A stretch of 63,161 nucleotides of DNA, counting the filler, from Folioceros fuciformis (lineage: Eukaryota): assembly GCA_049999805.1 (NCBI GenBank). It is 12 parts of 12 records of this genome, joined end to end, with 100 filler letters (N's around TTAATTAATTAA, not from the genome) between each part and the next. Parts side by side here need not be neighbours in the genome. Positions count along the whole stretch, not along the records: positions 21,679 to 29,874 come from JBNGIO010005596.1; 11 more parts are not named here. One strand, 5' to 3'. Within the stretch, counting starts at the first letter, position 1. Each line of letters opens with the position of its first letter. The notes beneath the pieces are model-generated. The model was not told the DNA's origin. It ran no database searches and saw nothing but the letters and a program-made list of their open reading frames with translations. Of the stretch, positions 14,056-52,315 are shown piece by piece. The position numbers and the translations under genes were made by a program.

Positions 14056-16229
14056 TATAAAGCAGAAGATTATAGGACGCAGAAGCATGTTTGAGGGCTC
14101 CCATGTTCCATCCTAAATGACATGGTTTTGAAAGAGGAGTCTCAAACATGAACGAAATTACTTGCTTATAGTAAAACTATGCATCCCTCTCCATATTCAT
14201 TGACAGGTTCAATTCCATGGTAGCATTGGTAGAAAACTGTAGCCGCGTGTGTCTGACACCAATAGCATATTCCCACTCACTTGCATCCTTAGCATTTTTG
14301 TTTTCCTACCACATTCTTGCTCACGTTCGTCCTATGCACTTTTGTTCTCCCATAACATACCTACTCAGGTCGATCCTTTGCATTTTTGTTGTTCCACAAT
14401 GTTATTGCTCGCATTCATCTTTCGAATTTCTGTTTCCCAACACATCTCCATCCACATTCATCCTTCACTACTTGCTTTTTCGTTTCCCGGGACATTCCCA
14501 CTCACTTTCATCCTTCACATTTTCTATTTCTACTTCATTTTTACATCCTCTCCATTCTTTTTCCTTCTTTGCATCTTTTGTAGTGGTGCATCATGGCCTT
14601 CTTGAACTCTCTTACTAAATACCTTCTCATGGTTGTCCATCCCATCGCTTTACCACAAAATGTTTTACCTTATCATGATCTTGTGTTGACTTACATTTCC
14701 CAACCATTCATGCCAACTTAGCTAGGAGTTAGTTGACCACAAATCACATCAAACTCAAAATGAGTATGCAAGGGCACTAGCTTAGGCTTATGTACTAATT
14801 TGACAAGGTGAGATTATGCCATGATCTAATAATGATATTAGGAACCATTAAATCAATTTGCAGCTTCATTTGGGTCATCAAAGACAACCAAAGTTGTTGG
14901 TAAGAACCAATCTAAATAGACTACATATGCAGCCATTGTTCCTACTTTGTGTGAGTACTGTTATACCAATATTGGAGGATGTTAGTTACAAAAGAGGTGG
15001 ATCATTGAGTACAGAAGTACTAGAAAGTTGCTAACTTCCTTGAGGAGACAAGGCAAGGTTTAAGGCATGGCAAGTGAAAAGTAGGTTTATCTCTAGAAAG
15101 TTGCTAACTTCCTCAAGAAGACAAGACAAGGTTTAAGGGAGACAATTGCAAAGCAAGTTTATCCCTTGAGAAAAAATTAGAGAGCATGTGCTTGTGATTT
15201 GATCCAATGTATGCAATTTTTGGTGAAAGGTCAATATGAGTCCATTGGAAAATTTTGAAAATATTGGACTACCATCATCTCGTTATCATATTCCTTTACA
15301 TGACTCCCATGTGCTTCTAGATGAATTTGACGTGCCTTTGATTGATCCCAAAAAGGTGCAGTAGAGGATGTCCATGTAGATGTATATAAAAGAATTGAAT
15401 TTATGCTAGTTGTGGGGTCCCATAATAGGTCCTACAAGCCACCATGTTGTTTTTTTTCTGTGTTTTCACTTTTAGATGTGTGGGTCATATGTTACGGTCA
15501 GTTATTATAGGAAATGTTACGGTCTAGGCAAAGGATAACAAAGCGAGGCCTGGACTTAGTCTAGTTGCATTGCTAATGTCGTTGTTACAATTGCCTTCCC
15601 AACCCACATTATTTTAGAGAGGAGTGAACATGGGGGTGCCTTGTCGACACACCCAATAGGTATGGGGGATTATGTGGAAAGGAGGGTGAGGCGGTTTTGC
15701 CGGCATGGGTATAGGTCATGATGAGGTAATGTTGCTAGGACTTGGTTGATGCATATTGCATGCGCAATTTTAAATGATTGCCTATATTGTATGTGATGTC
15801 CCCACAGTCCTGCTCAGTGATCGAATATTATGGTCTAATAATTATTCTAAGTTAGATGTTGGCAGGTACAACAGATAGGGCTATGAGTTCATTGGTTTCT
15901 CAATTTGATGAAGTATTGTGTGGAACCTTAGTGGGACTCAACCACGGCCTTTTGCGTGACAAGCTGAATTGACGTGATTACGGAAACCCACTTGGTTTGT
16001 TTTTGGCATGGATTTTCCCAACCATTCAAAAAGCAAGGAGGGTGTATCCCATTGGAATGTGGACTTTTTGTGTCGAGTGTAATGGTTGCCATTGCAATTG
16101 GGTTTGGGTAATTGGGTTCGAGATTACCTGCAGGTAATTTGACTGACTACTACTCTTTAGAGTAGGCGAAGGGCCATCCTTGCTCTTCCTTTGACAAAGG
16201 AAAGTGGATTAGAGAGGTTTTGTAGGCTC

Positions 16230-17447
16230 CTTTATGGATTTATGACAGAGTATTTGGTGCACTTGCGATGCCACTCAGACGTGAGTTTGAGCATCTGGCA
16301 AAACTGGACAAGCAAGACGTCACCAGGCAAATAATGAACGTGCTTCAGCTCTTTCATGAGAAACATTTGGAGGTTCCTTTTATCGCAATGTACTGTCAAG
16401 AACATTGTCCTGATTTGTTGCGGGAATATGTGGACGAACGAGATAGGGGTTACAGCTATGATATGGATAGTGATGACAAGGCCAAGCTGCGGCACCTTGA
16501 GGCACTCTAGGCTGTCCAGTTGTGGGATAAGAAATGGCTGTTGTTAAGGAGGAGGAAAACGAGTCTGAGATCAGCATACCAGAAAAGGGTGCAGAGTGAC
16601 ACGCTTATGGGCACGGCAAAGGATGATTTGCTAGCAAAGTTACTGACGCAGCTACAAGTAGCACAATCAAAACTTGCTGTTGACGTGGATGCAAAGTTCA
16701 ACTTGCATTTCCTTGCCGATGAAGTTGAAGAAAAGCAGGGACAGCTCAAGCGACCCAAAAGGCGTTCATACTACATTGTTTGCAGGAAAGCGAGACTCGG
16801 CAATGTCACAAAGTACTTTGGGCTTAGCCCTGAGCAGTTTGGAGAAAACTTGCAGGCCATGTACAAGAGACATGAAATGGGGGATGCTCAACTTTTCCCT
16901 GAACAAGCGGCTGCAGAATCTGTGAGCTCAACTATGTCACAATTTCGTGATGCCGCGTCAGCATTAAAAGGAGCAAGGCATATGGTAGCTGTGGAGATCT
17001 TCTCTGAGCCTGCTTGTCGGGAATATGTGAGAAATGTGTTCAATGAGCGATGTGTGGTATCGACGAGACCCACAGTGGATGGCAACTCTTCAATTGACTC
17101 CTTTCATAAATATGGGCCTGTGAAGTGGTTGTGCAATAAGCCAGTCAGTGCCTTTGTCGATGGCCGCTGGCTTTTGATTTAGAAAGCAGAAGAGGAAAAA
17201 CTTCTTGCTGTGAAGATGGGCTTGCCTGAAGAGGCCATTCAGACTGTGGTTATGCATGAGTTTGAATCGTGCTATATAAGTGATGGTGTAAGCAAAGCTG
17301 CGTAGGCATGGAATGAACAACGAAAGCTCATACTCAAAGAGGCCTTGCATTCACATTTTATTCCATTTATGGAAAAGGAGATGAGGATGGTTCTGCCTGC
17401 CCGTGCTAAGCAGTGGGTGGCATTGCAATGTGGCAAGGAACTGTGGA
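16230..17447 (+). pseudogene. SPT6: Internal fragment of transcription elongation factor SPT6 with three in-frame TAG stops
   Basis: EVPFIAMYC; WDKKWLLLRRRK; DVDAKFNLHF; KRPKRRSYY; LKGARHMVAVEI.SEP; STRPTVDGN..IDSFH; KAEEEKLL; SDGVSK..WNEQRKLIL. Confidence 0.9.
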
Positions 17448-18705: not shown

Positions 18706-18805
18706 NNNNNNNNNNNNNNNNNNNNNNNNNNNNNNNNNNNNNNNNNNNNTTAATTAATTAANNNNNNNNNNNNNNNNNNNNNNNNNNNNNNNNNNNNNNN
18801 NNNNN
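18706..18805. other. Artificial 100-bp contig spacer; also at 21579, 29875, 31230, 32944, 37663, 48211, 56206, 57427, 59014 and 61921
   Basis: N-run, ttaattaattaa (stops in all six frames), N-run, always the same length. Confidence 0.98.
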
Positions 18806-21524: not shown

Positions 21525-21855
21525 AACACAAATAAGATAAGTTTGACCTACTATCTATGGGCCCATAGACCACCATTTNNNNNNNNNNNNNNNNNNNNNN
21601 NNNNNNNNNNNNNNNNNNNNNNTTAATTAATTAANNNNNNNNNNNNNNNNNNNNNNNNNNNNNNNNNNNNNNNNNNNNGATGAAGCCACAACGTTTTGTG
21701 CTAGTCGTGTGTTGCTCAACAACAACAACACTAAGGCCTTACCCTCTTTTGGAGCTTAAGAGGGAGCTAGTTGTTTGTTTTGGTTTTAGTGTTATGGTTT
21801 ACATTAGCCTATTTTTCATATTTTCCTTATCCTGATTATTTCAACTAAGAGGGAG

Positions 21856-22004
21856 TAAAGGAAATTATGTTAGTTTATGTTAGTTTTATAACCAAAAATA
21901 CACTTTATTAAATACCTAATTATAACTGCTTTTGTCTTTGCTCACTTGCCCCTTGCGTTCTCACGCTCTCATGCCCGTGCCCTAGCTTTCACACTAATCC
22001 ATCA
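21856..22004 (+). mobile_element. PPT and short 3' LTR of a copia element inserted into the methyltransferase domain
   Basis: caactaagagggag precedes it, the same PPT context as at 45028-45041. It ends ccatca exactly where methyltransferase similarity stops. Confidence 0.65.
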
Positions 22005-22860
22005 CGCGAAAGAAAGCCCATGATCTGCTCACGCTCCTCAATGCGGGGCTCTTCCCATTGCTTTGTGGTGGTGTTGTATAGCAATCCAGCGCCGTTGCCG
22101 CAATAGGCAAAGGAGCCAGGAAAGCTCACTAGGGTAGGCAATGTTTTGCGAGGCTGACCAGGTGTGTTGGTTGGATGCCAGGGTGGTCGCTCACTAGCAA
22201 CCACAGGCCTGGGTTCATGATCTGCATCCAACACATCCTGCAGCTGCAAGGTGGGATCCCGCTTAGTATTGCGAAGCACGAGTTCCAAGAGTGAATTAGG
22301 GATGAGGTTGGTCCAGTAGTTGCGCAGACGATGCGCATAACTACCCACCTTGACAGCATCCAAAAGAAAGGGAGCACCAAGATGGTGCTCCACGACTGCC
22401 ATGTCCTGTCGCACAGAATCCCTCTTGTCAAGCTGTGCTGGGGTGTTCTCGAGGAGATAGCCACGCTGTGGATTTTCCTGTTGCACCCATGCCAAGATCT
22501 GGTGCAGGTCTCGAAACAACCCAGTGCGATGGTTCTCCAACCCCGCTCCTGCACCTGCTTAGGAGAACCCTTGGCATTCCCAGCTAGCTATTAGCACGTC
22601 TATGGATCCCAAGGCCTGGATGTGGCCTTGTTGGATGTACATGACGTCTTGAGGCAGTGCTGAGAATGTGGCAGCTAAGGCTGCCTTCGATAGCTGTGTG
22701 GGGAACCTGCTGCGGAGCTCCTGTAAGCGATGAGCAGCTATCTGCCGTGCTTCCCCGCTGCTGTCCCAGTATACATAACGCCTGATAGGGAGGCCTGCCT
22801 TAAGCAAAGCCTCTAGGCCAGTACAAATGCCGCCAAACAGGTCTACGAGAAAAAGGCCAG
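22005..22860 (-). pseudogene. DNMT3-like C5 cytosine DNA methyltransferase domain; one TAA stop, motif X absent from this contig
   Basis: Motifs in order: I LVDLFGGICTG; II YVYWD; III PQDV; IV DVLIASWECQGFS; V GL..RTGLF; VI YLLENT; VIII AHRLRNYWTN; IX EEREQIMGF. ORFs 22559-22948 and 21989-22540 share one frame. Confidence 0.88.
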
Positions 22861-23199
22861 CAGCTGGGATAGGCCAATCAATCACCTGAGACTTGACAAC
22901 ATGCTCTTGCATGGGATCCTTGAGTCCTCGCTGCAACAGAGCTTGCACCTACTGAACATGCTCGTAAGCATCCTACAGCACACCCTCAACCTATGTGGGA
23001 TGGTCAGCGGCCTTGATCAGATCTGTCAATCTACATGTGGTTGTGGTGTTGCTGAACTAGCTGTCACAATGCTCCTCCTCTTGCTCTGACTCTAGGTGGT
23101 CCTTATCCTGCAAATGGTTGCTGGCCAAGGGTGTTCCCTCCCTGACCAGGACTGTTGTACAGGCTTGTCGCTCTACAAGTGTAGCTGTGTCAGCCTCTG

Positions 23200-23650
23200 A
23201 CTTGTCATGCAATCGAAGGGATAAGTGTGCCACCCTTCTCCCTCCTTGCTTCCAATCTTGACGATAATACGCCTGCTCTGTCCAGTTGTCCACACTTAAA
23301 CTTGGTGGAAACAGAAATTCTTGCCCTAACAGCACGTCATAGTTTGTGGTTGTTGTCACTAGGCATGGAAGACTCAGCGTCATGGCATTTGGGGTGCCTG
23401 GCTTGAGTGTGATATCCATAGGCTTGACAGTTGCTCCAGCGACTGGCTCAATGGCTCCTGACGCTGTCCTTATGCTCCAAGGAGAGCTCTTGAGAGCTGA
23501 ACCATCGAGGTTGAGCCTAGCAGCTAATGTCTTGCCAATGATCACTGATTGAGCACCAGTGTCGAGCAGTACAACCCTTGGGGCATACCCATTCACTGTA
23601 ATATGCCCTGCATCATTGTCAACAAGTGCATTGCCGACTCTGACTGCTAG
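23200..23650 (-). pseudogene. Retropepsin aspartic protease domain
   Basis: VLLDTGAQSVII...IRTASG...YDVLLGQEFL. Confidence 0.88.
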
Positions 23651-24169
23651 GCAGTTGGTGGGTTGGATCCTAGGAGAGCTAATGGGTTGAGCAGGCTGCC
23701 TTCCAACTGCTGCAACTTCAAACATGCTTCCAGCTACTGTCTCCCTGGTGCAAGGTGAGATGCTACCAGGTACCACTCACCCATCTGGAGCTAGTGGCCA
23801 GCATGACGCTCCTGAAGACAATACAGTTGCTTGCGCTAGTTGCAATTCCTTGGGCAAACGCTCATGTCCTAGCCCCATGTCTTGCAAAGAGAATAGAGGA
23901 ATGCCAGTCAGTTTCTCAGATAATTGTTCCACAGTGAAGGCCCTGGGCATCAAGTAGACTGGCCCACTAGCTGACACCTGTGGTTACGGTGGAGGAATGT
24001 CTACTGTCTGTGGCCCTCCTGCCAATGTGGAATGCTCTTGCCCTCGGACTGGGATTGCACTTCCTGGTGACAGTGGTGCAAAAGTCTTGCCCTCGCTCCT
24101 CGCTGCCGAGTGACTGGCCCTGTTGCTGTCTCCAACACTGGTGGGTATAAATGTTGCCCTACCCACGTG

Positions 24170-25552
24170 TGTGGCAACTCAGCAGTTGTCATCTCAGCCT
24201 CCATCCAGTTGGCGACACACACCTGATGTTGTGAGCAGTAATCCTCCTCCTTGTCTCTGACCAGTTCAGCAACATTGGCTGGTTTGGGTGAGGTTGCTCC
24301 ACTACTGAGACTGGCTGTAAGCGCGCCCAGCTGTGAAGATAACGTTGCAACAGTGACTTCTAGGGCAGATACCTTCTCTGCATTGGATGCAGCCTTAGCT
24401 TTGGCCTTGTCCCTTTGCTGTCGGCTGCGTGAGACCCCAACACTAATACCAGCTTCTGTGGTAGCTAAACCTCCAGCATCGACTGCTGTAGTCCCTGTCC
24501 CACTGCTTGCATTTTTCTGAGATCTTCTCTCCGGATGCTTCTGAAAACATACTGTGACCACATGTCCAGTCTTGTGACAATGTGTACAGTACAAGCCTTC
24601 TACTGGGCATTTGCAAGCTGGGCTCATATGCTCAGAACTGTCACAGTAGTTGCACAAAGATGCAGCTGTAGCTACAGCTGCTCCAGCCTTGACAAGCTTG
24701 GCCTGCTGTGACTTGGCCCATGAACCTGTTGCAATACACCCCTTTGTGGAGAACATAGACTGGTAATGAGTAAATGCCTTGGAGTCTCGTGAAGCATATG
24801 CAGAGAGAGAAAGCAATCTCCCTGCGTTCAGCTTCTTCATGTACTTGCTCCAAGATATACCTATCACCATATTTATCCACCAACGTTGTGATGAGCTGAA
24901 AGTGAAAGAGTGGGTCTCCTTCCAAGGCTGTTAGGAATTTCTCTGCTGCGTCCTGGTCCGGTAGCATCCCTGTGCCCTCATGTAGCTTTTGCAGTCTACG
25001 AAACGCCATCTGCACGGTTTCTCCCTTCTTCCTAGCAAAAGATGCCAGCTCTACAATTTTCTCCGGAGTCTTCAATGGGAAGGCTTTCTCCAGAATGCCC
25101 ATAAATTCTTCGACGGGGTTGGCATACTTAGGAACCTGCAGCTCATCGGGTATGCCCACAGTGGCTGCTATCCTTTCATCTGGTGTAAGAGTTATGACCG
25201 TTGGGGGTGGCACTGTTGGTTCCACCGTGGTTGCAACAATGGCCTGCTGATGGCCTTGAATGGCTGCAACCAGCTTGGCGTTGTAAGCCAGCTGAAGAGC
25301 CTCCTAGAACCTTGGATTAGGCATGGACACCATGGCTGTGAGCTCAGCCTGATGCAGCTCATAAAGGTCTAGAGCTTCATCTGTCATATAACTTGAAAGC
25401 TACTCGAACATATACAAATGGTTGTAAGCTCCAGCATGCTTGAATTTTACCCGACTAATGACTGCATTGAGGTGCAGTCTAAAATCCCGCAAAGTTTGTG
25501 TCCCTAGTCTCCCGGAGAATCTCTCTTGCTTGTAAGGTGCTCCTCCCTCCAT
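24170..25552 (-). pseudogene. Gag-like region with two CCHC-type knuckles, stops and compensating frameshifts
   Basis: MEGGAPYKQERFSG; FARKKGETVQMAFRRL; CNYCDSSEHMSPAC; CTHCHKTGHVVTVC. Confidence 0.75.
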
Positions 25553-26959
25553 GGATCCAGTATCTGAATCCGATTTGCCCGACCTTGAGACCCTACCTCG
25601 CAGTTGTGACTACAGGACAATTAAAACCAGCTCCTTGGCTTCCCAAAGGAACTGTGGGGGCAGCTGTGCCTGTCCAGCCCACAAACGGAGACTAACTCTC
25701 GATCTCTGGTTGCTCCTGGTCTACGGCACTTGGCCGAGCTTGATGGTCCTCTTGGACCTCTTCCTCCCAAGACAAACGTGGCTGACGTGCAGCTCTCCTC
25801 CTCTTGGCTCGTCCACGCTTCGGTGTAACCCTAGCAGGGACGTTCCTCGATCGTAAGTGATAACATGGGCTGCCTTCAGGCTCCTCGGGTTGCATAACCC
25901 ATGCAACAACTCACACACAAACAACCAATTCTCAGCAAGAGGTGGCATGCAAGCACACCTGTTAGAGAACCCTAGGTGCCTCCCCAGCACAAAACAGAAA
26001 GCACAACTACTCTAGATCTGATCATGCTACAACACCCACAATTCCCCATGTCTGCCATAGGATTTAGGATCACAGCACAGCAAAACTCCAGCTCACATGT
26101 GAAGATTGTGGCACGCGGCCTCGCTCACTCTCGATGCCAGATCGAAAATCAAAACAAATGCAGCAAGAGCAAAACCCTGTTGTTCGAAACTTTCAAATGT
26201 AGTCAGTCCCTGAATAGGGCTCCAAATCGCACACAAAGCATACCAGACTGCTTGCCTTGACAAGACGAGTCGAATGGTCTAAGAATCAATGGCAACCAAT
26301 CTGTAATGCGGGCGCTATGAGCCCTGGTAGCTTGTTAAGTCAGCGTTGCAGCTGGCAGCTGGCAAGACGGGGAGGATGGCACCTTGCTGTAGGTGCGTCA
26401 CTACCTCCTCTAAGCCTAGTCGCACTCAGATCTTGCAGCTAGTTGTCGAAGTGACATGGAATCTGCTCACACGCAGATTTCTGGACGGTTTTGTTGGAAG
26501 AACTTGATTGACGAGAAAATCGGTTGGGTAAATCACACCGGGTGCTGCAGCGAGATACGAAGAACATCAATCCTTACAACTCTTGAGCCCAAATATGGCT
26601 GAAACAACAAAAGCAATTGAGTTTCTAAGATAGCGGCAGGCACTCTCCCTTGGTGCGACTTTGACGACTAGCGGCCTCCATCTCCATCTCCATAGTTTAG
26701 CATGGCGGCCATGGCTGACGTCAGCAATTCTGGTGCGGGCTTGCCTCTTTTAGTCATGATCATTTGGTTGGGCTCACACTCTCGGTGTGAGCCCACGGGT
26801 TTCAGCAGGGCAGCTGCGAGCATGCCCTAATCCACGTTCTCTAGTTTTTGGTGTTTACTAATTACCGTTTAGCATTTGCTAATTGCCAACATTTAAATGG
26901 TATTATCCTAAACTAATCTTTATTTAAAAGGATAATTGTTTCACGCTGCTTACTCAACA

Positions 26960-29619
26960 TTAAGCTCACCTTTGGTATCGTGACAAGAAAGACCTTAGAG
27001 TAAGGGCCATATTGGAGGCCACCATCGATAGTTCAATGATCCACCACATTGATGATGCCTCTGGATCACACATGGCATGGACAGCTTTGTCACAAATGTT
27101 TGCGACCACAATGTCCTCCTTGGTACATGCCACCATATCTTTTTGGAATTGTAAGATGAAGGACACGGACAGTGTTGAGGAGCATGTGATGCAATTTCGC
27201 CACCTTAGACAGAAGTAGGCATCCACAAGCACGACAATCACGGAGTTGCAAGCTTCGATGGCTTTGCTCATGTCATTGCCATACAAATACCGGGTATTTG
27301 TCAGCACACAAAATAGCAGCTTGAGGACTGCTACTGCTGCTACTATATCCTTATCCAACACAATTGGTGCTTTGCTCGAGGAGGAAGCGACCATGCACTC
27401 AAGTCGTGGAGGCCAAGGTTCACACAACCAGGTCCTTTATGCTAGCAGAGGAGGAAGAGGGGGTCATGGTGGCCGCTTTCCTACAAGACCACCATCGCAG
27501 GGCAAAGGCAAGACAAATAAAGGTCGAGCTCCACCAAACCCCAACCATAGGAAACGCACCTATAACTGGTGCCGTCTTCTAGGCCACACAGAGGCCAACT
27601 ATAGAAAGAAAAAAACCAGGGAGCCAAGGAGAGCACTTGAGGCTCATGTAGTTGCCCGGGCCAAAACAACAAATCCAAATACTATTCTTACTGTGTTCCT
27701 TGCACACACCAAGGCTAATCAAAATCATTGGTTTGTCGACTCGGGTGCTTCCACACACATCTGCTACATGCGAGAAGGCTTCATCAAATATAACGCCTAT
27801 GCACCTGGACAGTTTGTCCTACTTGGAGATGAGAGTGGACTTGCAGTTGCTGGTTGCGGCACCGTGCAAATTCAGCTGCAAGATGGATCCACCCGCTTGC
27901 TCTACCAAGTGCTACACGTCCCACACATGTGTAAAAATCTCATGTCAGTTCGGCATCTTTGCAAGGATTGCATGGTTAATATTTCTTTCAGCGAAAATCA
28001 CTGTGAGCTGCGAGAGACGCAGACAGACCATATCCTGGCCCTTGGTACCTTACAGGCTGATTTATACAAGCTGGATTGCTTCACATCACGTGCTGGAAAT
28101 CCACAAGTCAACTCGACATCCCAAGCCATGTTGGCAAAATGTTTTACACACAGTGATCCCCAACTCTTGTGGCATTCAAGGCTTGCACATCCGAATTTCA
28201 CGAAGATGAGAGGGATGACAGAGCAGGAGTTGTACCGTGAGAAACTCGATTGGAAGGTCAGTGACACAAATGTATTGTGTGGCGCCTGCATCCATAGTAA
28301 GATGGTCAAAAAGCAGCCTAAGAATGGTGAACATGACCGTGCATCTGACTTATTGAAAATGGTCCATACGGATCTCTGTGGACCAATGTCAATACCATCC
28401 CTTGGTGGTTCCCTTTACTTCATGGTTGTCATTGATGATTACAGCAGATACACTGTCACATATTTCTTGCGGCAGAAGAATGAGGCCAACAGTATGTTGA
28501 CTTTTCTCAACAACAAACTGGGAAAACTCTCAAGGTGCTCAGGACTGATAATGAGGGCGAATTTATTAGTGGCGATTTTCAGTCATACTATCGTTCTCTT
28601 GGCATTGCCCGCCAGCTGACCTCCCCACACACATTCAGCCAAAACCCATTGGCAGAGGCGAAGAATAGATACCTCCAAGAAGCAACCAAGGCCATACTTT
28701 ATCAATCTGGTTTATCCAAGCCATTTTGGGCTGATGCAGTACAAACTACCACATATGTGCAAAACCGTTTGCCCACCACTTCTTTCATAGGTGCTACCCT
28801 ATATGAACGGTGGACTGGTCATAAACCATCCATTTCATATCTGAAAATTTTTGGCAGCCGTGTGTACATGCACATCCCAAAGACCCAACCGAGGAAGTTG
28901 GATTACCAAGCCCGTGCTATGACCTTCATTGGATATACTGAGGGTATCAAAGGGTATAAGGTTTATGACCCTAGCTCCGGCCATGTCACTCATACCCGTG
29001 TTGGCATATTTGATGAAAACAGCTTGTTGGTTGCGGCTTGTGCCAGAGAGGGGGGCCGAAAGGATGTGATGCTTGACTCTCAAGTTACTGAACTCCAAAG
29101 TGATAGTGACTCTGAACTTGAGCAAATAATTCCAAGTGCAAGTAAGCCACAAGTAACTCCACCACATGCCCCAAGCCATACCTCAGCTCTAGGCTTAAAT
29201 CCACCACCACAAGTTGACACTGATGCTGGTGATACATTTGAGGCCAATGTAGGTGCGGGTGAAGCTGAAACCAATGTGCCAACATAGCCTGAACTTGGTC
29301 AGCCCGCTACGCTTAGGAGGTCAGCAAGACACCATACAAGCTCTCCCCTGGAATGGAGTCAAGTGCCGCTTGCCATGGAAGGGCACATACGGCCGAATGC
29401 AAATACGAATGCTATGTTGGCTAAAATACTCATAGCAGCCCAAGACCTAGGTGAACCAGCATCCTACAAAGAAGCCATAAACTCACTGGAGAAGGAGCAG
29501 TGGCAAGCAGCGATCAAATCAGAGTTTGATTCCCTCATTGAGAATGAGACGTGGGAATTAGTTGATCTACCTCAAGGAAGGAGGCCGATTTCAAACAAAT
29601 GGGTGTTCAAGAGGAAACT
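26960..29619 (+). pseudogene. Ty1/copia gag-PR-IN-RT(start) fragment, interrupted at both ends by insertions
   Basis: WFVDSGASTHIC; LWHSRLAH; VHTDLCGP; LRTDNEGEF; TWELVDLP..KWVFKRKL. Confidence 0.92.
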
Positions 29620-29874
29620 CGTGGAGTCCACATGCTGAACAGACCCCTGGAAAATGGTGGGGTTTCTTTTTTTGGGAATCTCTGAGTGAATTTTGTAGAG
29701 AAATGGTTAGGAGATTAGGTTAGATTAGTGGGTTAGTGAGTAGGGTCTAGGTAGGGTGTGTGGTAGGTAAGACACGGGTTACGTCCCTCTGGTTAGGGTG
29801 TCCGGATGTGTGTGGAACCTAGACCCATGAGTGGAGCTGCCTGGAGCGGCCAGGCAGTGACAACGACGAGGAGT
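29620..29874 (+). mobile_element. Probable start of an LTR inserted in copia RT, cut by a gap
   Basis: RT stops abruptly after KWVFKRKL; a (c)gtgg start is followed by G/T-rich U3-like sequence. Confidence 0.4.
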
Positions 29875-29974
29875 NNNNNNNNNNNNNNNNNNNNNNNNNN
29901 NNNNNNNNNNNNNNNNNNTTAATTAATTAANNNNNNNNNNNNNNNNNNNNNNNNNNNNNNNNNNNNNNNNNNNN

Positions 29975-30965
29975 GACATACCTGTTCCTAGTTTTGTATG
30001 TGGATGATATGTTGTTGGCTTCGAATTCCCTCCATTTGCTAATAACGATGAGGGATTTATTGATGGCCGAGTTTAAGATGACTCACCTGGGTGAAGCTAG
30101 GTACTACGTGCGAATTCATATACAAAGGGACAGGACTACAAGGACTCTCACACTGAGCCAGGAGAGATACCTTAGGGAGTGTTTGGCGCAGTTTAACATG
30201 ACCGACTGCAAGCCCTGTAGTACCCCGATGGTTGCAGGTCAGAGGCTGACAAAAGCTATGTGTCCAGTCTCCGATGCTGAGAAGGAAGCCATGAGGGGAG
30301 TACCCTACAGAGCAATCGTGGGAAAAATCTTATACTCTGGAAATACTACTAGACCTGAAACATTAGGAGCATCAGGAAACTGTTCCCAGTTTTTAGAAAA
30401 TCCCGGCAATTTACACTGGGTGGCAGCAAAACGTGCCCTACGATACTTTGCTGGAACATTGACAGTTGGAATCACGTATGTAGGAGAGGTTGGAGGCATA
30501 CTTACAATGCAGATTTTCTGTGACTCAGATTATGCTGCTGATGTAGATACCAGAAGGTCAATTATTGCTTTTGTGGCCACTCTTGCTGGAGGACCTGTGG
30601 ACTGGCAGTCACGTAAACAACCCACTGTGGCACTCTCAACAACTGAAGCTGAGTACAAGGTGTTGACAGAGGGCGCCAAGGCTGCCATGTAGTCCAGGAG
30701 ATTGTTAGCTGAGCTTCGGCATGAACAAAGGGAACCTACCATGTTGTACGTGACAACCAAGGAGCGGCTGCTCTTGCACGAAACCCTGTGTTTCATGCAA
30801 GAACGAGGCACATTGGTGTACAGTACCATTTTATTAGGGAAGCTATCGATGCTGGAGATGTAGTGGTTTCCTACATAGCAACTGCTGACAATCCAGCTGA
30901 CGTCCTGACAAAGCCACTAGCACGTGAGCTCCACAACAAGCATATGAAGTTTCTGTCACTTCTAC
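29975..30965 (+). pseudogene. Ty1/copia RT-RNase H fragment
   Basis: YVDDMLL; CDSDYAADVDTRRS; ALSTTEAEY; FHARTRHI; DNPADVLTKPL. Confidence 0.92.
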
Positions 30966-31329
30966 CTACTACACCAGCCAAAATAGGCCCTTCAGTCCAC
31001 TTGAGTATCAGCCAGAATCCGAAGATGGGCTTTGAGAGCTTAGCTGGGGCAAAAGGTTGTCTCGGCCTCAACATTCATGGGGCCATCACACTGTGGGAGC
31101 CTATCGGCATCGAAGATTCAGAAGCTGCAGTGGTGCAGCGCTGGCAGCAATTCGAAGACTCAAGCTACCGTGGCAATAAAGGGACGAAGAATTTTCAACG
31201 GGCGCTACTCTAATGTGCTGTGTGGGAGANNNNNNNNNNNNNNNNNNNNNNNNNNNNNNNNNNNNNNNNNNNNTTAATTAATTAANNNNNNNNNNNNNNN
31301 NNNNNNNNNNNNNNNNNNNNNNNNNNNNN

Positions 31330-32236
31330 GAAGAGCTGCCCCATAGCTTGAAACGAAGGACTGATAACTATGGGGAAGACTAGTTAGAAGTTGAGCCACA
31401 TCGTCAACCTCGCCCAACTGAGAACCAAGTGAGATCAGCTGTGATCTCAAGTGTCTGAACTTAGCCACGAAGGTGGCTACTTTCTCTCCCTCCTTCATCC
31501 GTAATGAGAAGAGTTCCCCACGTACTGTGCACAGTGTAATGATATTCCTCACATCATAAGTCTGTGACAGCTGATTCCAGATGTCCTCGGCCTTAAAAAG
31601 GTAAGCTACATCGGGAACAAGTACCTCATCTAACCCACTGATGAGTAGGGCACGAGCGACGTTACTTGCATTCATCCATCGGTCCTTGTCATCTTGTGTG
31701 GCGTTAGGTGAGGGTTGTGGAATCTGGCCATTCACAACTCCCCAGACATGCCTGGCATCAAGGGCAGCTTGCATCCGGACACTCCACACCTGGTATTTTG
31801 TACCATTGAATCGGTCACGTTCTTTGAATTCAATGGTGTACGCCGGCTGATAAATGTGACCTTGAGCAGCAGGCGAGCCTGAGGTTGCTTGTGCAGGCGG
31901 ATTAGGTGGTGGTACGGGCGGAGGTGGTGGAGGATTGGGTGGTCCGCCACTGCCACCTGATCCACCACTGGCACCGCCAAGACCAGAATACCAGTTGCCA
32001 AGGCCACCAAGTCCTGCATAAAGGCTTGTGTAGGGGTTTGGAAAAACGCCAGAGGTAGTGGCAGCACCAGAGGTAGAGGCGGAAGCTCCACCTGCACCCT
32101 GCGCTGGACCTGACGTAGAGGAAGATGGCGGCGGTGGCACAGCAGTGCTGCCTGGAGTTGCAGAACTCACGGCGGGGGAGACGTTTCCAGTCCTCATGCC
32201 AAAGAGGAGCCCTGCAGAACTCTGCGTGGTGTTCAT
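31330..32236 (-). CDS. Ty1/copia gag with a Gly/Pro/Ser-rich N-terminus (partial, runs into gap)
   Basis: IEFKERDRFNGTKYQVWSVRM; LRMKEGE; LLTSLPHSY. Confidence 0.85.
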
Positions 32237-33043
32237 CGTGCACGCAAGCAGTTAACAGGCTCAATTCTCAAAGGTGGATGCTGAAAAACTGATTCGCGCT
32301 GATCGATTGTGTAGACCAGCGCGGAGCATGCTGAGTTTCGGGAAGAAAAAAAATCAAGCGCAAGACGGGGGCGAACGGTTGCGAGGTGGTGTGCAAGGTA
32401 GCAAGCCGGCAAAGCGGCGAACCAGCTGTAGCGGTTATAGAGAAATCCCTTGCCTCTGAAAAGTTGCTTCACTAGTCGCGTCTGTTTCGCCATTTGAGCA
32501 TGCACCCTTTGCGACCACACACATCCGGATTAATCTGACGATGTTGACCTGGATTGCTGATCATAGGGCAGAGGCGCGTCCTCAAGATCTTGCATCGCCT
32601 GGCCGCGGCAGTTGCAAACAGTCGCGCCCCTATCGCTCTCCGGCCAGCACCGGTTCAGCGTCGCATGCGCGTCCTCGAAATCTGCTTACGTTCGCCCGTG
32701 CACGTAAGCTGATCGAGGGTCATGAACTCAGTTGTGCCGATTGAAATCTCGCGTTTGCTGAGTCTGTCTTTGTGCAAACACGCCAGAGTTGGTGTCGCTG
32801 ATTACAAATCGCATGAGTATAGGGAAAGATGGCCTGTCCAAGAGGAATTGCGTCCCGATAATAATCGCTCCAGCAAGGTAATGAATCTCCCATGCTGATT
32901 TATAAGGGCTCGCATTTGAGTTTGCAGAAGTCTGAGGTCGCCTNNNNNNNNNNNNNNNNNNNNNNNNNNNNNNNNNNNNNNNNNNNNTTAATTAATTAAN
33001 NNNNNNNNNNNNNNNNNNNNNNNNNNNNNNNNNNNNNNNNNNN

Positions 33044-35328
33044 TCCAACAATTTGTACCCCTTGATCCCTTCCGTATAGCCAACAAACACGTACTTGCGG
33101 GCCTTGTAGTCGAGCTTAACTCGCTGATCCTCCGCCAAGTGAGCATATGCTGTTGTACCGAAAATCCTGAGGTGATTGATTCTCGGCTTGTGATTTGTCC
33201 AGCGCTCATATGGTGTTGCACCTGTGAATGTGCTGGTGGGAACCCTGTTCCTAATGTACACAGCTGTACTTACCGCTTCAGCCCAGTATCCTCTTGAAAG
33301 GCGTGCCTGCTGAAGCATTGCTTTGGTTGATTCCTGTGTGTGTTGGTTTGAGATTTCACCTATAGGATTTTGTGCTGATGTATATGGAGTTGTCAGCTGC
33401 CTGGCTATGCCTTCTCCCTTGCAGAAACTGGCGAAGGCATCTGAAATGTACTCGCCTCCGTTATCACTCCTCAAGGTTTTAAGCAGCTGACCTGTTTGCC
33501 TTTGTGCAAACATAACAAACTCCATGAAGCAGTCAAGAGTCTGACTCTTCTGTTTGATGGGGTACACCACTGTGTATTGACTCCAGTCATCTATAAATGA
33601 CAGGAAATATCTGGCTCCACCGAGTGACACTGTGGACATAGGTCCACAGATATCCGTATGTACAAGCTCCAAACGTTTGGTAGCACGAGTTGGGTTGTTG
33701 TCTTTGTATCGAGCTCGGTGGTGTTTGCCAAACACGCATGCCTCACAGAAAGGCTTCTCAACGGACTTCAACTGAAATTTTTCCCGGTAAAGGGTGTCAC
33801 TCTTGGCCATCATGTTTAATTTGTCAAAGTTTGTGTGTCCCAAACGAGCATGCCATAGCCTCGCATCCCGCTCATCCTTCTGTGCTTGTGTCAGATTTGC
33901 CACTGGTCTGCCATGTCCATACTCAAGGTCCAGCTTGTACAGGTTATGCTCTGGTGTACCAATTGCAAACACTTCTAATTTGTTTGCCTGGTCAACTATG
34001 TGGCATTGCCCATTTGCACATATGGTGCTTAATTTGTGTTGTACGTCTAACAAGTAGACTGAGACCAAGTTCTTGACCAGGGTTGGTACATGCAGAACTT
34101 CTAACAGGACTTCAACTCTTCCAGTTGTGGACTGAATAGAGACCTTGCCTATTCCTTTGATGGGCATACCCCTATCATCACCAAGTAGCACAACCTGACC
34201 ACTTGGCATCTTTCTATACTCTGAGAACGCTGATCTGGTATGACAAATATGTGACGACGCCCCTGAATCGAGGTACCACGCATCCCTGAATTGTGGTGTG
34301 GACATCATGTAAACTGCTAGAACTGTATTGGGCTTTCTAGATGCCATGTTGGCTTCAGGTGGGGCCGTCCTGCGAGGCTCTCCTGCCTTCTTTTTCCTGC
34401 AGTCTGCCTCCCAGTGGCCTGGGATGAGGCACCAATTGCAGGTGCCCTTCTTCTTGGTGGATGCTGTTGGTGGTCGACGCTTGAAGCTCCCACTACCTCC
34501 AGCATTTTGGTACTGTGAACCCTGACGCGGTGGCTGTTTCTTTGAGCCTCTGTTAGTGTAGAGCACTTGATTTGAGGACTCTCCTCTGAAGGAGGTACCT
34601 CCCCTGCTTGCGATCCTTGTGGATTCTTCCTCCAGCAAGGCTCCAATTAAATCTGAGAGGGAGACTGTAGGAGTCTGTCCAGCTGGTGTGGCCTGGGCCA
34701 CATTTCGCATATGTGTGCAGTGGTTGCTCACAAAGACACGATAGCTGTCAGGCAGGGACAGGAGAAGAGCCACAGCAGCCTGCATCTCTGTCGTTGCTGT
34801 CCCACTGGAGGTGAGCTTCGACCTCAGCATTCTGAATTTGATGACGTGCTGTTCCACTGATTCGTGCTCCTTCATCTTGCAGTTGTAGAAGGCACGAGTT
34901 GCACTCACCATTGATGACCCATTCGACACTCTGTAAATCTGGTTCAGAGAGTCCCAAACATCTTTTGTTGTTGCAGCATCTTGAGTATGATGCATCATTG
35001 ACCCGTCGAGGGCTGACTGAATGATGCCCAAAGCTCAAAGATCTGATTTTGCCCATGCATCTACATCTGCCTGGGCTGCTCCTTGCGGAGGTTTGGGCAC
35101 TGTGCCCGTCACGATGCCCCAAAGGTCGTGCTCTCTCAAGATGGTATGGACTCTAAGTGCCCAAATGTCAAATTGAGTGCCATTGAATCTGTCTTTTTCT
35201 TTGAAATCTATCTTGACGTTTGTGACAATGGTTGTATTGTTTGTGACAGTCTGCGGTGGCTGGTTTGCCATATTTCCAACCGCTTGATGTGCAAGGGCTT
35301 GACCCGCTTGTGCTAATGCATATTCCAC
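33044..35328 (-). pseudogene. Copia gag-protease-integrase with one stop
   Basis: CNWCLIPGHWEADC; WYLDSGASSH; LWHARLGH; VHTDICGP; LRSDNGGEY. Confidence 0.93.
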
Positions 35329-37662: not shown

Positions 37663-37762
37663 NNNNNNNNNNNNNNNNNNNNNNNNNNNNNNNNNNNNNN
37701 NNNNNNTTAATTAATTAANNNNNNNNNNNNNNNNNNNNNNNNNNNNNNNNNNNNNNNNNNNN

Positions 37763-38275
37763 AACATGAATCAAGGTGCAGACATTTTTGACCTGGTAAG
37801 TGTCAACTAACTGATTCCAAACAACTGCTGTTGTCTTAAGGAACTCAACTTCTATGACTGTTGTCTCATCCAGTCCACTAAGAAGTATGGCAAATGCCAC
37901 TTTATTCCCTTTGTTCCACTTGGCTATCTCATCAGCTGTGGGTTGATGTGCTGCAGTGGATGGGATCGAACCATCCACATACTCCCACACGTCACGTGCG
38001 TTCAGATGAGCTTTCATCCTAGCTTTCCAGCTCTCGAATCTAGCAGGTTTCCCATCAAACCGATCCTTCTCTTTAAACTCTCCTGTATAAGTAGAACCAA
38101 TTGCTACGTTAGTACCCATATTATGAATGGGTCGTGGTAACGGGAGTGGTTGATTCTGTAGGAATGCAGGGAGTACAAAGACCGGGAACTGAGATGCAAG
38201 GGACTGTAAAAAGTCCTCCTCTACATCTGACGACTCATCTACCTCACTATCTGACTCGTCCAAAAAAGAAGGCAT
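37763..38275 (-). CDS. Ty1/copia gag N-terminal part (partial)
   Basis: EFKEKDRFDGKPARFESWKARMKAHLNARDVWEYVDG. Confidence 0.8.
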
Positions 38276-38735
38276 GAAACGGTAAGCAGCATGCCAGTGA
38301 CATTTCGTAGGGTTAGCAGCGGTTCAAAAACTTAACATGATATGAAACGTTATTTTTAGGGCAAGATGCCTATTCAAATGTGACTTTTGGTGACAAATGT
38401 CAGGAAGGACCAACCGACATGTCTGTTAACCATGGCGGTTGAAATCAGGCTGCAGACCCCCGTCGCCAGGCACTAGCTGATGCCTTGCACCTGCGATGGA
38501 GCGCCCACCAGCACTGAATCTGGTGTAAACTAGGCCGCCTCAAGTGCCTGCCTCCCTTGCGGTGTAGCAGGCTGGATGTTCAGCGTCAACCCTTGATAAG
38601 CAATAAGACAAATCATTGCCCTTCCAACATCAGCTAAGCCACCATCATTGGATCAGCTAAGCCCTTCCAACATCAGTCATTTGCTCCAATGATGTGGTTG
38701 TCGGCGCGCTGAACTGAGTGCAAGATTGTTGAAGA

Positions 38736-41700
38736 TAATGGAATTGTAAATATCTCTAGAATTAGGTTAGAAATATATAAGTAGTTTAATAAACAGTTAC
38801 AACCGACAAACATGACTTTGCTTATATGCTTGAATTTCTGCTGAAGCACCCAACCGTTTTTATTCCCCTTCGTGCCTCGTGCTTCTGGTCATCGCCTTCA
38901 CGCGTGCTCGTGCCCCTGGCATTCATGGATTGCGTTATGGTATTAGAGCTTTGTTGATCGTGCGCGAGCACCCATGTGTGGTACAGTACGATGCCGAAGC
39001 GCGGGTCTGCACCACGTGCGCCGAGGAGAAGAGTCTGCGTAGAAGCAGCACGGACTCCTTCTCCTAGGACGGGTTTTGTATGCCGATACTACTGTGAAGA
39101 CGAATTGCAGACCTTTGCTCCTCGATTTGTCATCTCAAGGCACACAGCTCGCTCCTCCTATATCCGGCGCAACGTGGTTAGCCCCGCACAAAGTCCTCGG
39201 AGAATTTCACCGGTAAGCACTCCAACATCCGGCACACCTCGAAGGCAGCGCCCGGACAGACAAGCGAGGGAGAGCGAGATCCTTGCTGCCAGCGCTCAGA
39301 TTCGAGTTTTACAAGATGTTCTTCAGGGTCTTACTGCCGGCATCAACCAACTGTTTCTCATCTGCCAGAGTCATCGTAGTGCTAGGCGTTCACATCTGGC
39401 TGGTCTGATAGCAGCAGGTCGCGAGAGAGCGACCCGTTACTAATTCCCTTCTCAGTTTTGATGAAATGTCGCCTAGGAGGTCTTTGAATGTCGCATCTGA
39501 TGACAAATTCGACCTCGACTCCGACGGCATAGTGGAGCCAGACGAGGGGAGAGACCCTCTTGACGTTGACGAGCAACAGTCACGGCCAGCAAGGACTCCA
39601 CAATACGAGTTTGACTTCGACTTTGGCCGCTCCCGCCATCCCACTGCTGGGACAGAGGAGGACCGGACACGGGGTGACTACAGATCTTATGTACGCGCTG
39701 GAGAGTATTCACGGGAGCCTGAGGTTTACCAAACTCGCCAGCAAGCTCGTCAACAACCTCCTACGGCTGGAACTATTCCAGCCTTTGCAAGTTTTGCATC
39801 AAGTTCAACTCCTGCTTCAACATCTGCCACCTTCTCTACATCAACGGGAGTTTCTTCTTCAACCATGGCAGCTCTTCCTCACAGTACCCTGAAAATAGAG
39901 TTCAGAGACAAGGATCGCTTCAACGGGAGCGACTACAACACTTGGTCAATGCGTTTGACCCAGATACTTGAGGAAAATGAGCTCATGTCAGTTGTTGATG
40001 GAACAGAAGTGATCCCTCCAGTGCAGCCTGCTCACGCATCAGCTGCAAACGCTACGAATGCTGCTAACATTCTGGCATGGCAGAGAAAGGATAGGAGAGC
40101 TCTCTCTATTCTTATTGCATCATTGGATAGAAATATGATGCCCCACACTCTTGGTGCTAACACCTCTGCTGCTGTGTGGCACAACTTCAGTCTGCTTTAT
40201 AAAGACAAGAGCAGTGCTTCCCAATTGTATGCACATAGAGAGTTTTATGGCATGAGGATGAAGGAGAGCGAGACTGTGGAGTCTTACATCAACCGGTTTT
40301 GCACTGCCCGTGCCACCTTAGCTTATTGTGGGACAGTTCTGACTGAGACTCAAGCTGGGACTACCCTATTAGCCTCTCTGCCCGAGAGCTATATAGTCAT
40401 TTCATAAGCTCTCAATTTGCAAGGGCCTCTGCAGCGGCTGCTGGAGGTCCTCCAGTCTTAACCTTGGAGGAACTTCTTGGTGCCCTCTTAGCTAAAGAAC
40501 GGACCAAGGGTTTCCACAAGGGCAAGCAAGGAACTCATCAGAATACTCGGGTTTTATTTTCTAGACGTGGCAGAGGTGGTAGAGGTGGCTGTGGTAGAGG
40601 AGGACAAGCCCGAGGAGGTCACTCCACTGCCAGGCAACCAAATCTTCAGAGGAAGACTTTCACATGTTATTGGTGCAAAATCCCCGGGCATTATGAGAAG
40701 GACTGTCGTAAGAAGCGTGCTAGGGAACCTAAAAGGGAAGTATCTGTCCCAGAATCAAATCTTGCTGCTGCTAAACTTGCAACATCCAAAACCCCGTCAA
40801 TCCTTGCAGTTTGTTTGTCTTCAGTTCACATACAGGCTGACATGTGGTTTTTGGATTCCGGTGCAACCAGTCATATCTGCTATGACAGACAATCTTTTCA
40901 TGACTTCACACCAGCTTCTGACAGTCGCCAGTTTGTGTTGTTAGGTGACGACAGTGGTCTTGCTATCAAAGGTTCTGGTTCGGTAAGTATAGAACTGCCC
41001 AACTTAGATGTCTTGGTTCTCACAGGTGTGCTTTTCGTCCCTGCCATGACTAAAAATTTGATGTCAGTTATGAAATTAGCTGAGGAACATTCTTGTCGAA
41101 TCTGTTTTGATCACACCGGGTGTTCTATCTCTCGCATACCTGGTTGGGATGATATTTTCTATGGTACACCTTTTAACGACTTGTATTTGTTGAATGTCAG
41201 AACCTTACCACAGCGGAGCACTGCCCATGTAAGTGTCTCACCCTCCATTTCACCAACTCAGCTTTGGCACTGTCGACTCGGACATGTGAATTTTCAGTGC
41301 CTATCTTCCTTGGTTAACAATACTGTTTTTCGAGATCAGCTGTCTTTTTCTTTTGATCACCAAGCTTTTTGTGACTCTTGCCAGGTCAGTAAAGCCATGT
41401 CACAACCATTTCGTGATCAAAATCTGTCTAGAGCCCCTAGCCTCTTGCACACAATTCACAGCGATCTCTGTGGTCCCATGTCTACTGAATCTTTTGGTGG
41501 GGCCCTTTATTTTCTCACCTTCCTTGATGAGTGGAGTAGATATTGCACCATCTATGTCCTCCACAGCAAAAGCCAAACACTTTCCTGTTTCCAAGACTTC
41601 ATCATCATGGCTCAACGTCAGACTAGGTGCAATGTAAAGATTCTTAGATCTGACAACGGGGGAGAATATACTAGCCATGCCTTTTCTGAGTTTTGTGCAG

Positions 41701-50918: not shown

Positions 50919-52315
50919 TGAAGGTGGTACCTAAACTAGAGCAAAGCAAAGCTAGCAAGGAGCATTGACAAGGAGAGTTTATGAAATATTTGGGTCATTT
51001 TGGGACAAAAAGGACGTTAAGTTTACTCATGAACAACTATTATTAGAAGGGAATGATGGATGTAGTGAAAAAAGTGGTGTCTACATGTGAGATGTGTGAT
51101 AGAGTGAAGGCTAGCTTTTCGAGCAAAACTTATGAACTTCATCCATTGCTTATAAGGGTAATGTTTTAAAGGTGGAGTTTGGACTTGGCAGCGGTGTTAC
51201 CAATCACACAAAGGGGTTTCAAGTATGGGTTGATGATAGAACAATTTTTAGAATGGATAGTTTTAAAGTCGTTAAGAGAAAAGAGGGCAGATATTAGGGA
51301 AGCGTTTCTCAATCATGTGCTTAGCATATTTGGAGCATGTGCAGAAGTTTTGATATTGATAGATCACGATATGGAGTTCATGGGGGAGTTTGATGAACTT
51401 TTTGAGTGAGTGTCTTATTGATCATAGAGTTACTTCTAGGAATCATAAAAAAGCGATGGTTTAGTGAAGAGGATGGTTGAGACTTGTAAGGAAACTCTTT
51501 GGAAGTATTGCTTCAATATGGTTTAGTGAAGAGGATGGTAGAGACTTGTAAGAAAACTCTTTGGAAGTATTACTTGAATATGGATAAAAATGAGTGGGAT
51601 AGACTGTTGCCTTTTCTTGTGATGGGTTATAGGATGAGCATACAGATATCCTTAGGAAAGTTTTTACCGTACATGTCGTTGTTTGGGCATAGACCTCAAC
51701 TATCTAAAATGTTGAAGAATAAATTGGTGAATGTCTGTCTCTTACTAAAATGGTGAATGTTATTATGGATTTGGATAATCCAAACTAGTGGTTGAAGCTT
51801 GTTAATCATAGGGTAGAGTTGTGTAAAAGGATTATGCCCATGGCAATGGATAATTTGCTGATAGCTCAACATGGAGATGAATTGAGGTATAGGAAGACTA
51901 GGAGTGGACAGTTTAGACCTAAGATAAAAAAAAGTTTGAGGTAGGGGATTATGTATACTTGCCAAGGAAATATACTACGATTATTGATACAAGTGCAACC
52001 TTGGGTTTTTATAGAATAATTTTGAAGGTTAAGTGTGTGAAACCAAATTGAGTTTTAGAGTCGGAGGGCAGCTATGGTGCAACATGTTTGGAGCATATGA
52101 AAAACTATGCACCGTGTCATTTGCCACATTTGGATCCAACGATTGATGTGTAGGCTTTTATACCAAGGAAGGGATTTGCTTATATGGGGTGTGGAGATCC
52201 CAGGAGTGATCATTGTTTACTTTTATGTGATAGATGGAACGATGGCTGGCACATTTTCTATTTAGAGCCGCCATTGGAAGTAGTGCCTGAAGGCCAATGG
52301 TTTTACCCAATGTGA
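50919..52315 (+). pseudogene. Ty3/gypsy integrase with a C-terminal PHD finger, heavily decayed
   Basis: GHFGTKRT..CEMCDRVKASF; WSLDLA; FGACAEVL; IDHRVTS; LPFLVMGYRMS; APCHLPH; then YMGCGD..LLLCDRWNDGWHIFYLEPPLEVVPEGQWFYP. PPT aggggagaaggg and a tgta LTR-like start at 52571. Confidence 0.85.

Follow-up and report, generated by a model that had tools for sequence, protein, structure and literature searches.

Hosts rely chiefly on cytosine methylation to fight transposons, so a transposon carrying a de novo methyltransferase of its own reverses the usual picture. To our knowledge, transposon-borne de novo methyltransferases have so far been described in print in dinoflagellates and one charophyte. 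DNMT3-related domains are located in the Pol polyprotein of a long terminal repeat (LTR) gypsy element of Klebsormidium nitens, KnitGypsy-Dnmt3, and were placed as a divergent DNMT3-related clade; the text of that paper gives no domain order for the element (de Mendoza 2018, PMC5890265), and a 2026 preprint refers to 'streptophytes (Gypsy-DNMT3)' (10.64898/2026.05.21.726589). Here we describe a locus at 25552-22012 on the minus strand of a 63,161-nt stretch of DNA (the window), which we read, with a probability of about 0.9, as a decayed, 3'-truncated copy of a streptophyte family of Ty3/gypsy type that codes for a single gag-pol polyprotein, organized as gag, protease (PR), DNMT3-like methyltransferase, reverse transcriptase (RT), RNase H (RH), DDE integrase (INT), and PHD finger. 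The order up to methyltransferase motif IX is that of the window copy, and the complete order is that of intact relatives. Judged by its sequence, the element appears to be a distant new member of the Gypsy-DNMT3 elements of streptophytes, known since 2018 (PMC5890265); an earlier inspection of the window (the original prediction) had rightly pointed to retrotransposon-borne cytosine methyltransferases as precedent.

The window is composed of 12 contigs separated by 11 identical 100-nt linkers (44 N, TTAATTAATTAA, 44 N), located at 18706-18805, 21579-21678, and nine further places, and adjacency across a linker is meaningless. The element is carried by an 8.2-kb contig (21679-29874) and breaks off at 22011/22012, as defined by the end of the tblastn alignment and by loose contig ends, with the contig end 333 nt past the break (Table 1). 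Its parts can be followed along P0002, an intact relative of 2358 aa in which Pfam places the protease at 663, DNA_methylase at 953-1137, RVT_1 at 1443, RNase H at 1685, the integrase at 1925-2090, and the PHD finger at 2300. The N-terminal and capsid-like part of gag has no Pfam match, and residues 26-166 of an open reading frame (ORF) at 25303-24644 align with P0002 162-295 (E 9e-10). The two Cys/His knuckles are at 24654-24613 and 24588-24547 on the minus strand, and the nucleocapsid part aligns with P0002 360-445 (E 8e-6; tblastn match 24654-24430). The protease is collinear with P0002 from 655 and matches the Pfam gag-asp_proteas family (42.3 bits, E 1.2e-10), and the linker that follows it aligns, with gaps, to that of P0002. 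The gag start codon, both knuckles, and the LLDTGAQ motif expected at about 23560 were thus all located on the minus strand.

From 24166 to 21989 the minus strand is a single frame with seven internal stops (TAA at 23986 and 22561, TGA at 23779, and TAG at 23059, 22993, 22975, and 22951; the terminal TGA is at 21991) and no frameshift, as had been claimed, and one tblastn alignment to P0002 spans 23623-22013 without a change of frame. The frame of 25609-24643, which holds the gag ATG, is the same as that of 24178-21991, which holds the protease and methyltransferase, and the knuckle part lies in a different frame than both of its flanks, so two frameshifts bracket it. With at least nine stops and two frameshifts between the ATG and the break, and with everything after motif IX lost, the window copy is dead, in agreement with the original prediction. 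The ratio of observed to expected CpG is 0.35 in the element versus 0.43 to 0.61 in five other measured stretches. The stop spectrum was considered as proof of decay of methylated cytosines and dropped; all seven stops could have arisen by transitions, but this is not diagnostic.

Whether the domain at 22861-22013 is a METHYLTRANSFERASE was put to Pfam, solved structures, protein representatives, and a family profile. PF00145 is matched by the read-through polyprotein at 25.2 bits and by the domain alone at 27 bits, both above the gathering cutoff of 22, as well as by 30 of 38 aligned family members (best E, 2.6e-17); it is not matched by the two separate pieces flanking the TAA at 22561. By alignment, motifs I (DLFGG), IV (WECQGFS), VI (LLENT), VIII (AHRLRNYW), and IX (EEREQIMGF) are in canonical order, so that of the longer motif series originally predicted these five stand, with the qualification that in motif IV (22579-22571) the catalytic Cys is kept and Glu replaces Pro. 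Among 138 relatives, motif IV reads ECQ in 72 and PCQ in 45, both variants being present in both of the architectures described below, and motif VI reads ENT in 57 and ENV in 46; the Glu-Cys and ENT of the window are therefore the commonest family variants. RxRxxW is present in 129 of these relatives. Residues conserved across the family include the motif IV Cys (at least 90%), the Glu and Asn of motif VI, the two Arg of motif VIII, and the Glu-Arg-Glu of motif IX, and in the family alignment C125, E167, N168, R207, and R209 each show at least 90% conservation or no variation at all. Motif X is absent from the window copy, which ends after motif IX at 22012, and is present in relatives.

A single-sequence search of solved structures returns DNMT3A, DNMT3B, and DNMT3C first (E 3.7e-5), with M.HhaI next (E 0.14). 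A family profile built from the window domain and 37 short relatives (38 sequences) matches DNMT3A at E 6.7e-25 (90.9 bits), DNMT3C at 1.3e-22, and DNMT3B at 2.2e-22, followed by a DRM at 1.8e-12 (49.9 bits), HhaI at 1.2e-9 (40.6 bits), DRM2 at 8.6e-9, and DNMT2 at 8e-4 (21.5 bits); no DNMT1 or chromomethylase (CMT) is found among the solved structures at an E of ≤1. Both searches bear out the predicted likeness to DNMT3, and by these rankings the domain appears nearer to DNMT3 than to DNMT1, CMT, DRM, DNMT2, or bacterial enzymes, with its motifs not rearranged.

An exhaustive search with the methyltransferase domain against 1.84 billion protein representatives gives 1539 proteins at an E of ≤1e-3 and 213 at an E of ≤1e-30, the best at E 2.9e-64 and 43% identity, which argues that the match is not due to chance. 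The K. nitens and Closterium proteins are among these representatives, yet none of the relatives is more than 43% identical to the whole domain; the host is therefore neither of those algae. When longer proteins were sought, 11 were recovered (E ≤ 1e-3; 7999 candidates scored). Most relatives come from metagenome or run assemblies. From the protease through motif IX the window sequence aligns with P0002 655-1238 (33% identity, E 2e-89), with the methyltransferase domains 41% identical by tblastn (E 9.5e-68), and a second relative, P0096, is ordered zf-CCHC-PR-DNMT-RT-RH-INT. The fusion of gag, protease, and methyltransferase is a trait of the lineage, as the three are arranged collinearly with P0002, the K. 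nitens protein, and the Closterium proteins. This agrees with the claim that the methyltransferase is an in-frame domain of the polyprotein following the protease rather than a neighboring gene, although the novelty of the arrangement was overrated, since a K. nitens protein has the same gag-PR-DNMT order.

It is extremely improbable that a host DNMT3 gene fragment or retrocopy came by chance to lie beside an unrelated gag-protease remnant. The copy is cut off, with no RT, RH, or INT after the methyltransferase, and the two separate pieces do not match PF00145, both of which such an accident would accommodate, but protease, linker, and methyltransferase are in the same frame and collinear with P0002, P0096, and the K. 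nitens and Closterium proteins, and 14 independent proteins have the PR-DNMT arrangement. Moreover, the methyltransferase part is covered by many diverged contigs, as are gag and protease, and it is 36 to 43% identical to transposon methyltransferases, compared with only the weak single-sequence match to DNMT3A noted above.

The relatives fall into two architectures. When 195 proteins, 35 of them redundant cluster members, were sorted with domain probes cut from P0002, 100 were of type A, with RT or RNase H before the methyltransferase (full form PR-RT-RH-DNMT-INT-PHD), 14 were of type B, with the methyltransferase right after the protease or before RT, and 81 were too short to tell; the redundant members comprise 17 of type A and 18 of the short ones. 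A quick maximum-likelihood tree of 139 methyltransferase domains, excluding redundant cluster members and domains shorter than 270 aa, has one branch (SH-like approximate likelihood ratio test [SH-aLRT] 96) that splits 118 rows (77 type A, 41 too short to tell, and no type B) from the other 21, which contain all 14 type B proteins, the window, and 6 that are too short to tell. The window element is of type B by both architecture and tree. The named type B proteins are from Closterium sp. strains NIES-53, -54, -65, and -68 (e.g., CAI7855100.1 and GJP34393.1) and K. nitens (GAQ93235.1), and the named type A proteins are from Chlamydomonas eustigma and Chromochloris zofingiensis, so that, among named records, streptophyte algae have type B and chlorophytes have type A. 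In the literature searched, with subscription journals and supplements outside the search, no paper was found on this split. Among the 41 loci from a metagenome scan, L001 and L002 alone are true relatives; L001 has the other architecture (type A) and no direct repeats. Some relatives of the RT-RH-DNMT-INT order also code for a G-patch between the methyltransferase and the integrase (P0004 1082-1105, Pfam E 5.7e-4; P0117 737-780, E 5.1e-5).

The element is a multicopy family in the same organism, as is evident from the many diverged contigs that match it. Short contigs from three DNA runs of one sample (X1, X2, and X3) were placed on 21679-26963, and 641, 553, and 335 of them, respectively, fit at 85 to >99% likeness, covering all 30 bins, including those of the methyltransferase; the X1 contigs divide into 149 at 99% or higher, 260 at 95 to 99%, 177 at 90 to 95%, and 55 below 90%. 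Depth was summed over contigs here and does not measure copy number. From 22012 on to the right, four X1 contigs match the element, and to the left their letters differ and code, in the frame of the element, for T-A-A-P; P0002 has T-A-A-P after motif IX, and T[AS]AP is found there in 55 of 119 relatives, indicating that other copies continue the methyltransferase past 22011/22012. A fourth run, X4, which is guessed to be RNA, contributes a single 47-nt piece. One contig each in X1 and X2 joins 22624 to 24573, skipping 1948 nt, and represents a deletion derivative in which gag is fused to the middle of the methyltransferase.

These contigs also bear on whether the 8.2-kb contig is an assembly chimera, in which reads of different repeats were misjoined and the gag-PR-DNMT order is an artefact. 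The window does consist of short unplaced contigs and linkers, and the region is highly repetitive, but both the order and the spacing recur in proteins of unrelated assemblies, and contigs from independent runs cover every one of the 30 bins; we consider a chimera very improbable.

The edges of the copy differ from those first proposed. A copia insertion had been thought to cut the element at 22004, but the break is at 22011/22012, and the 333 nt beyond it are a repeat of unclassified type, bounded by a linker. This flank resembles nothing else in the window; many contigs cover it, and at 22011/22012 there are loose ends on either side. One X3 contig fitting the flank continues past 22011 into sequence with a loose likeness to an initiator-tRNA primer site, so an LTR end may be present here, although nothing marks it as copia. 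At the other edge, the noncoding stretch upstream of gag contains no repeat within the window and no match to an initiator-tRNA primer-binding site (PBS), and it is covered by many contigs. Summed contig depth rises from the bin at 26812-26963, base composition and depth change near 26830, and a plus-strand copia gag-integrase runs from about 26964 to the contig end; one X3 contig carries a divergent form of the sequence spanning 26952. A boundary at 25571 was dropped, as indels within the same sequence account for the loose ends there.

Several observations weigh against the reading of this locus as a gypsy-type, methyltransferase-bearing retrotransposon. The 8.2-kb contig contains no LTR pair, PBS, RT, RNase H, or integrase of the copy, so the assignment to the LTR retrotransposons, made in the original prediction, is not borne out by the window itself and the class assignment rests on relatives. 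In tblastn searches the contig has no RT, RH, or INT, and neither a second copy nor an LTR emerges when the element is compared with the remainder of the window by blastn and tblastx. No direct repeat involves 21679-29874, which has no bearing on the family because the contig is short and the copy cut off, and the initiator-tRNA PBS motif has 10 matches in the window versus 5.7 expected, none of them at the element. Membership in DNMT3 is a ranking against solved structures and not a placement in a tree with reference DNMT3, DRM, and DNMT1 sequences; motif IV is Glu-Cys and not the canonical Pro-Cys in the window and in 72 of 138 relatives, and enzyme activity is a prediction only; and a gypsy DNMT of K. 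nitens gave no methylation in yeast, a result its authors judged inconclusive (PMC5890265).

The absence of LTRs raises the possibility of an element whose repeats are arranged as in DIRS elements and which is not LTR/gypsy in structure, as was drawn for the K. nitens elements, for which the legend to Fig. 4c describes a DIRS repeat structure with gypsy-like domains (PMC5890265). Neither the window copy nor the metagenome relative L001 has a visible LTR pair, which would suit this arrangement. The relatives, however, have a DDE integrase (rve and Integrase_H2C2) and RT_RNaseH typical of Ty3/gypsy and no tyrosine recombinase, and elsewhere in the window, on contig 8, an integrase-PHD remnant of the same gypsy lineage lies between plain direct repeats. 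We therefore regard a DIRS-like structure as unlikely. For the Ty3/gypsy-type family, the Pol order in relatives P0002, P0096, and P0385 is PR, RT, RNase H, and DDE integrase, and the window copy has gag, PR, and DNMT only.

The contig 8 remnant matches P0002 1918-2340 by tblastn at 41 to 52% identity (E 2e-34 and 2e-51). Eight of its 198 integrase codons are stops, and P0002 (45%) is its closest relative, with no supported clade. The flanking 416-nt direct-repeat pair (48477-48891 and 54259-54663) is 93.75% identical. As only about 2 kb separates the left repeat from the integrase, gag to RNase H is missing.

What the methyltransferase does for the element can be proposed by reference to a living copy. 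The protease would cut the polyprotein, and the methyltransferase, either free or joined to RT, could then methylate cytosines, most likely CG, of new cDNA or of a fresh insertion. Chromodomains steer integration in chromoviruses, and the PHD finger at the integrase end may in a comparable manner read histone H3 tails and pick integration sites. Self-methylation of the cDNA or new insertion is offered tentatively, at somewhat under even odds, and the remaining weight is split among three other roles, in which the domain would methylate host DNA, methylate RNA, or act noncatalytically. The idea of an element marking its own cDNA was already raised in the 2018 paper, whose authors suggested that the element could look like host DNA or damp its own activity (PMC5890265).

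The frequent replacement of Pro by Glu next to the catalytic Cys bears on this proposed role. With Glu at this position in 72 of 138 relatives, with no methylation in yeast by the K. nitens gypsy DNMT, and with an RNA-methylation role suggested for SymbioLINE-Dnmt (PMC5890265), the family may be real and its methyltransferase directed not at its own DNA but at RNA or at host DNA near insertions, or may serve only as a DNA-binding module. We consider this a serious, if doubtful, alternative. The catalytic Cys, ENx, RxR, and motif IX Glu-Arg-Glu are kept family-wide, as is RxRxxW in nearly all relatives, purifying selection has been reported for the K. nitens copies (Ka/Ks < 0.2), and SymbioDIRS-Dnmt3 enzymes methylate CG de novo in yeast (PMC5890265), all of which speak against this alternative.

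Table 1. Coordinates of the element, its flanks, and a related remnant in the window
Feature	Position	Strand	Details
Unclassified repeated sequence in place of the rest of the element	21679..22011		Adjoins linker at 21679
DNMT3-like C5 cytosine methyltransferase (predicted), motifs I to IX	22012..22861	minus	TAA 22561; ends before motif X
Protease-to-methyltransferase linker, 150 codons	22862..23311	minus	TAG stops 23059, 22993, 22975, 22951
Retropepsin-type aspartic protease	23312..23602	minus	LLDTGAQ 23569-23549; PF13975 and PF13650
gag nucleocapsid part, frame B (shifted)	24001..24930	minus	ORF 24930-24001; two CX2CX4HX4C knuckles
gag N-terminal and capsid-like part, frame A	24643..25552	minus	ATG 25552-25550; TAG stops 25402, 25306
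Noncoding sequence upstream of gag (leader, perhaps part of LTR)	25553..26963	minus	
Decayed integrase and PHD finger, same gypsy lineage	50921..52309	plus	Contig 8 (48311-56205)

Other sequences in the window are mostly of other types. Ty1/copia remnants dominate the contigs on both strands (4514-5984, 26964-31213, 31274-35034, 37715-38323, 39412-44213, and 57483-58646), and a copia ORF of 994 aa at 40347-43331 is 31 to 45% identical to its best-matching proteins, the best named matches being to land plants (31 to 36%), too distant to inform on the host. Contig 1 contains an intronless SPT6-like stretch (16226-17182, plus strand) of 318 codons with one internal TAG, which is probably a processed pseudogene. 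Run assemblies match it at 52 to 55%. Its nearest named match is from the lycophyte Diphasiastrum complanatum (53%), ahead of two EukProt transcriptomes (49%), Ceratopteris and Amborella (46% each), and angiosperms (about 40%), and all of the named matches are land plants. We read the host, called a plant in the original prediction, as probably a streptophyte that is not a seed plant, and more likely than not a land plant. At the start of the same contig (844-1047, plus strand), four overlapping 81-nt matches spaced at 41 nt and 60 to 100% alike constitute a short 41-nt tandem repeat. The direct repeat 18566-18705/37431-37570 corresponds to two contig ends, and Rfam and tRNA scans of the window gave no match.

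The gag-PR-DNMT layout is therefore multicopy in what is probably a further streptophyte and is also present in Closterium proteins, with a sister layout in chlorophytes, pointing to a lineage-wide feature of green organisms and not the curiosity of one alga. The chlorophyte RT-RH-DNMT-INT and streptophyte PR-DNMT-RT orders may be sister arrangements of a single capture. It is conceivable, though we would not call it probable, that with a land-plant host of this kind the element represents the first DNMT3-bearing gypsy family in embryophytes, present as hundreds of diverged fragments. If so, the gag-PR-DNMT-RT lineage of the Klebsormidium and Closterium proteins would have accompanied its hosts from water onto land and proliferated in a land-plant genome that also has RNA-directed DNA methylation (RdDM), and a host with RdDM, CMT, and DRM would be a system for studying how a transposon benefits from writing methylation itself. 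No report of a DNMT-bearing gypsy element in land plants or lycophytes, or with a PHD or other accessory domain, was found in the same literature, the titles of 26 of the 33 papers citing the 2018 work included.

Of the described systems, KnitGypsy-Dnmt3 is likewise a DNMT3-like domain inside a gypsy-type polyprotein of a streptophyte (PMC5890265). The K. nitens protein GAQ93235.1 (P0135), which may be one of the KnitGypsy-Dnmt3 copies, has zf-CCHC, protease, and DNA_methylase by Pfam, as in the window, and is collinear with the window from the protease to motif IX (30% identity over 544 aa, E 6e-57). The window sequence nevertheless falls outside the K. nitens branch on the DNMT tree and has Glu-Cys rather than Pro-Cys in motif IV, and the window copy is dead and cut off, in a host that is not K. 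nitens. Closterium CAI7855100.1 (zf-CCHC, protease, DNA_methylase, and RVT_1) has the same domain order as the window and is on the same side of the tree, although the Closterium proteins form their own clade (SH-aLRT 99) with the window outside it; in the literature searched, no paper describing these Closterium gag-PR-DNMT-RT proteins was found.

Among cellular enzymes, the catalytic domain of DNMT3A/3B/3C is the best match of solved structure and has the canonical motif order in common with the window domain, but the latter lacks PWWP and ADD domains and is embedded in a polyprotein. Plant DRM enzymes are circularly rearranged, and their profile score is 40 bits below that of DNMT3. SymbioDIRS-Dnmt3 of the Symbiodiniaceae also has a DNMT3-type domain within a retrotransposon Pol (PMC5890265), but unlike the window's lineage it is of the DIRS class, with a tyrosine recombinase and an alveolate host, and represents an independent capture. 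The EpiLTRs of Cymbomonas and Euglena are LTR elements with a cytosine methyltransferase and a chromatin reader, in which the DNMT is sister to DNMT4 by the tree of the preprint and is accompanied by a Dam-like adenine methyltransferase and a chromodomain (Fernandez-Moreno 2026 preprint, 10.64898/2026.05.21.726589). The type A elements, including C. eustigma CEUSTIGMA_g13874, C. zofingiensis Cz02g39130, and L001, are organized as RT-RH-DNMT-INT-PHD, with the methyltransferase between RNase H and integrase, whereas in the window's lineage it is between protease and RT. Their methyltransferase is nonetheless related to that of the window, with 36 to 44% identity and the common signatures WECQ/WPCQ, AHRLRNYWTN, and ERERAMGY, and their integrase-PHD tail is the same as that of the window's lineage.

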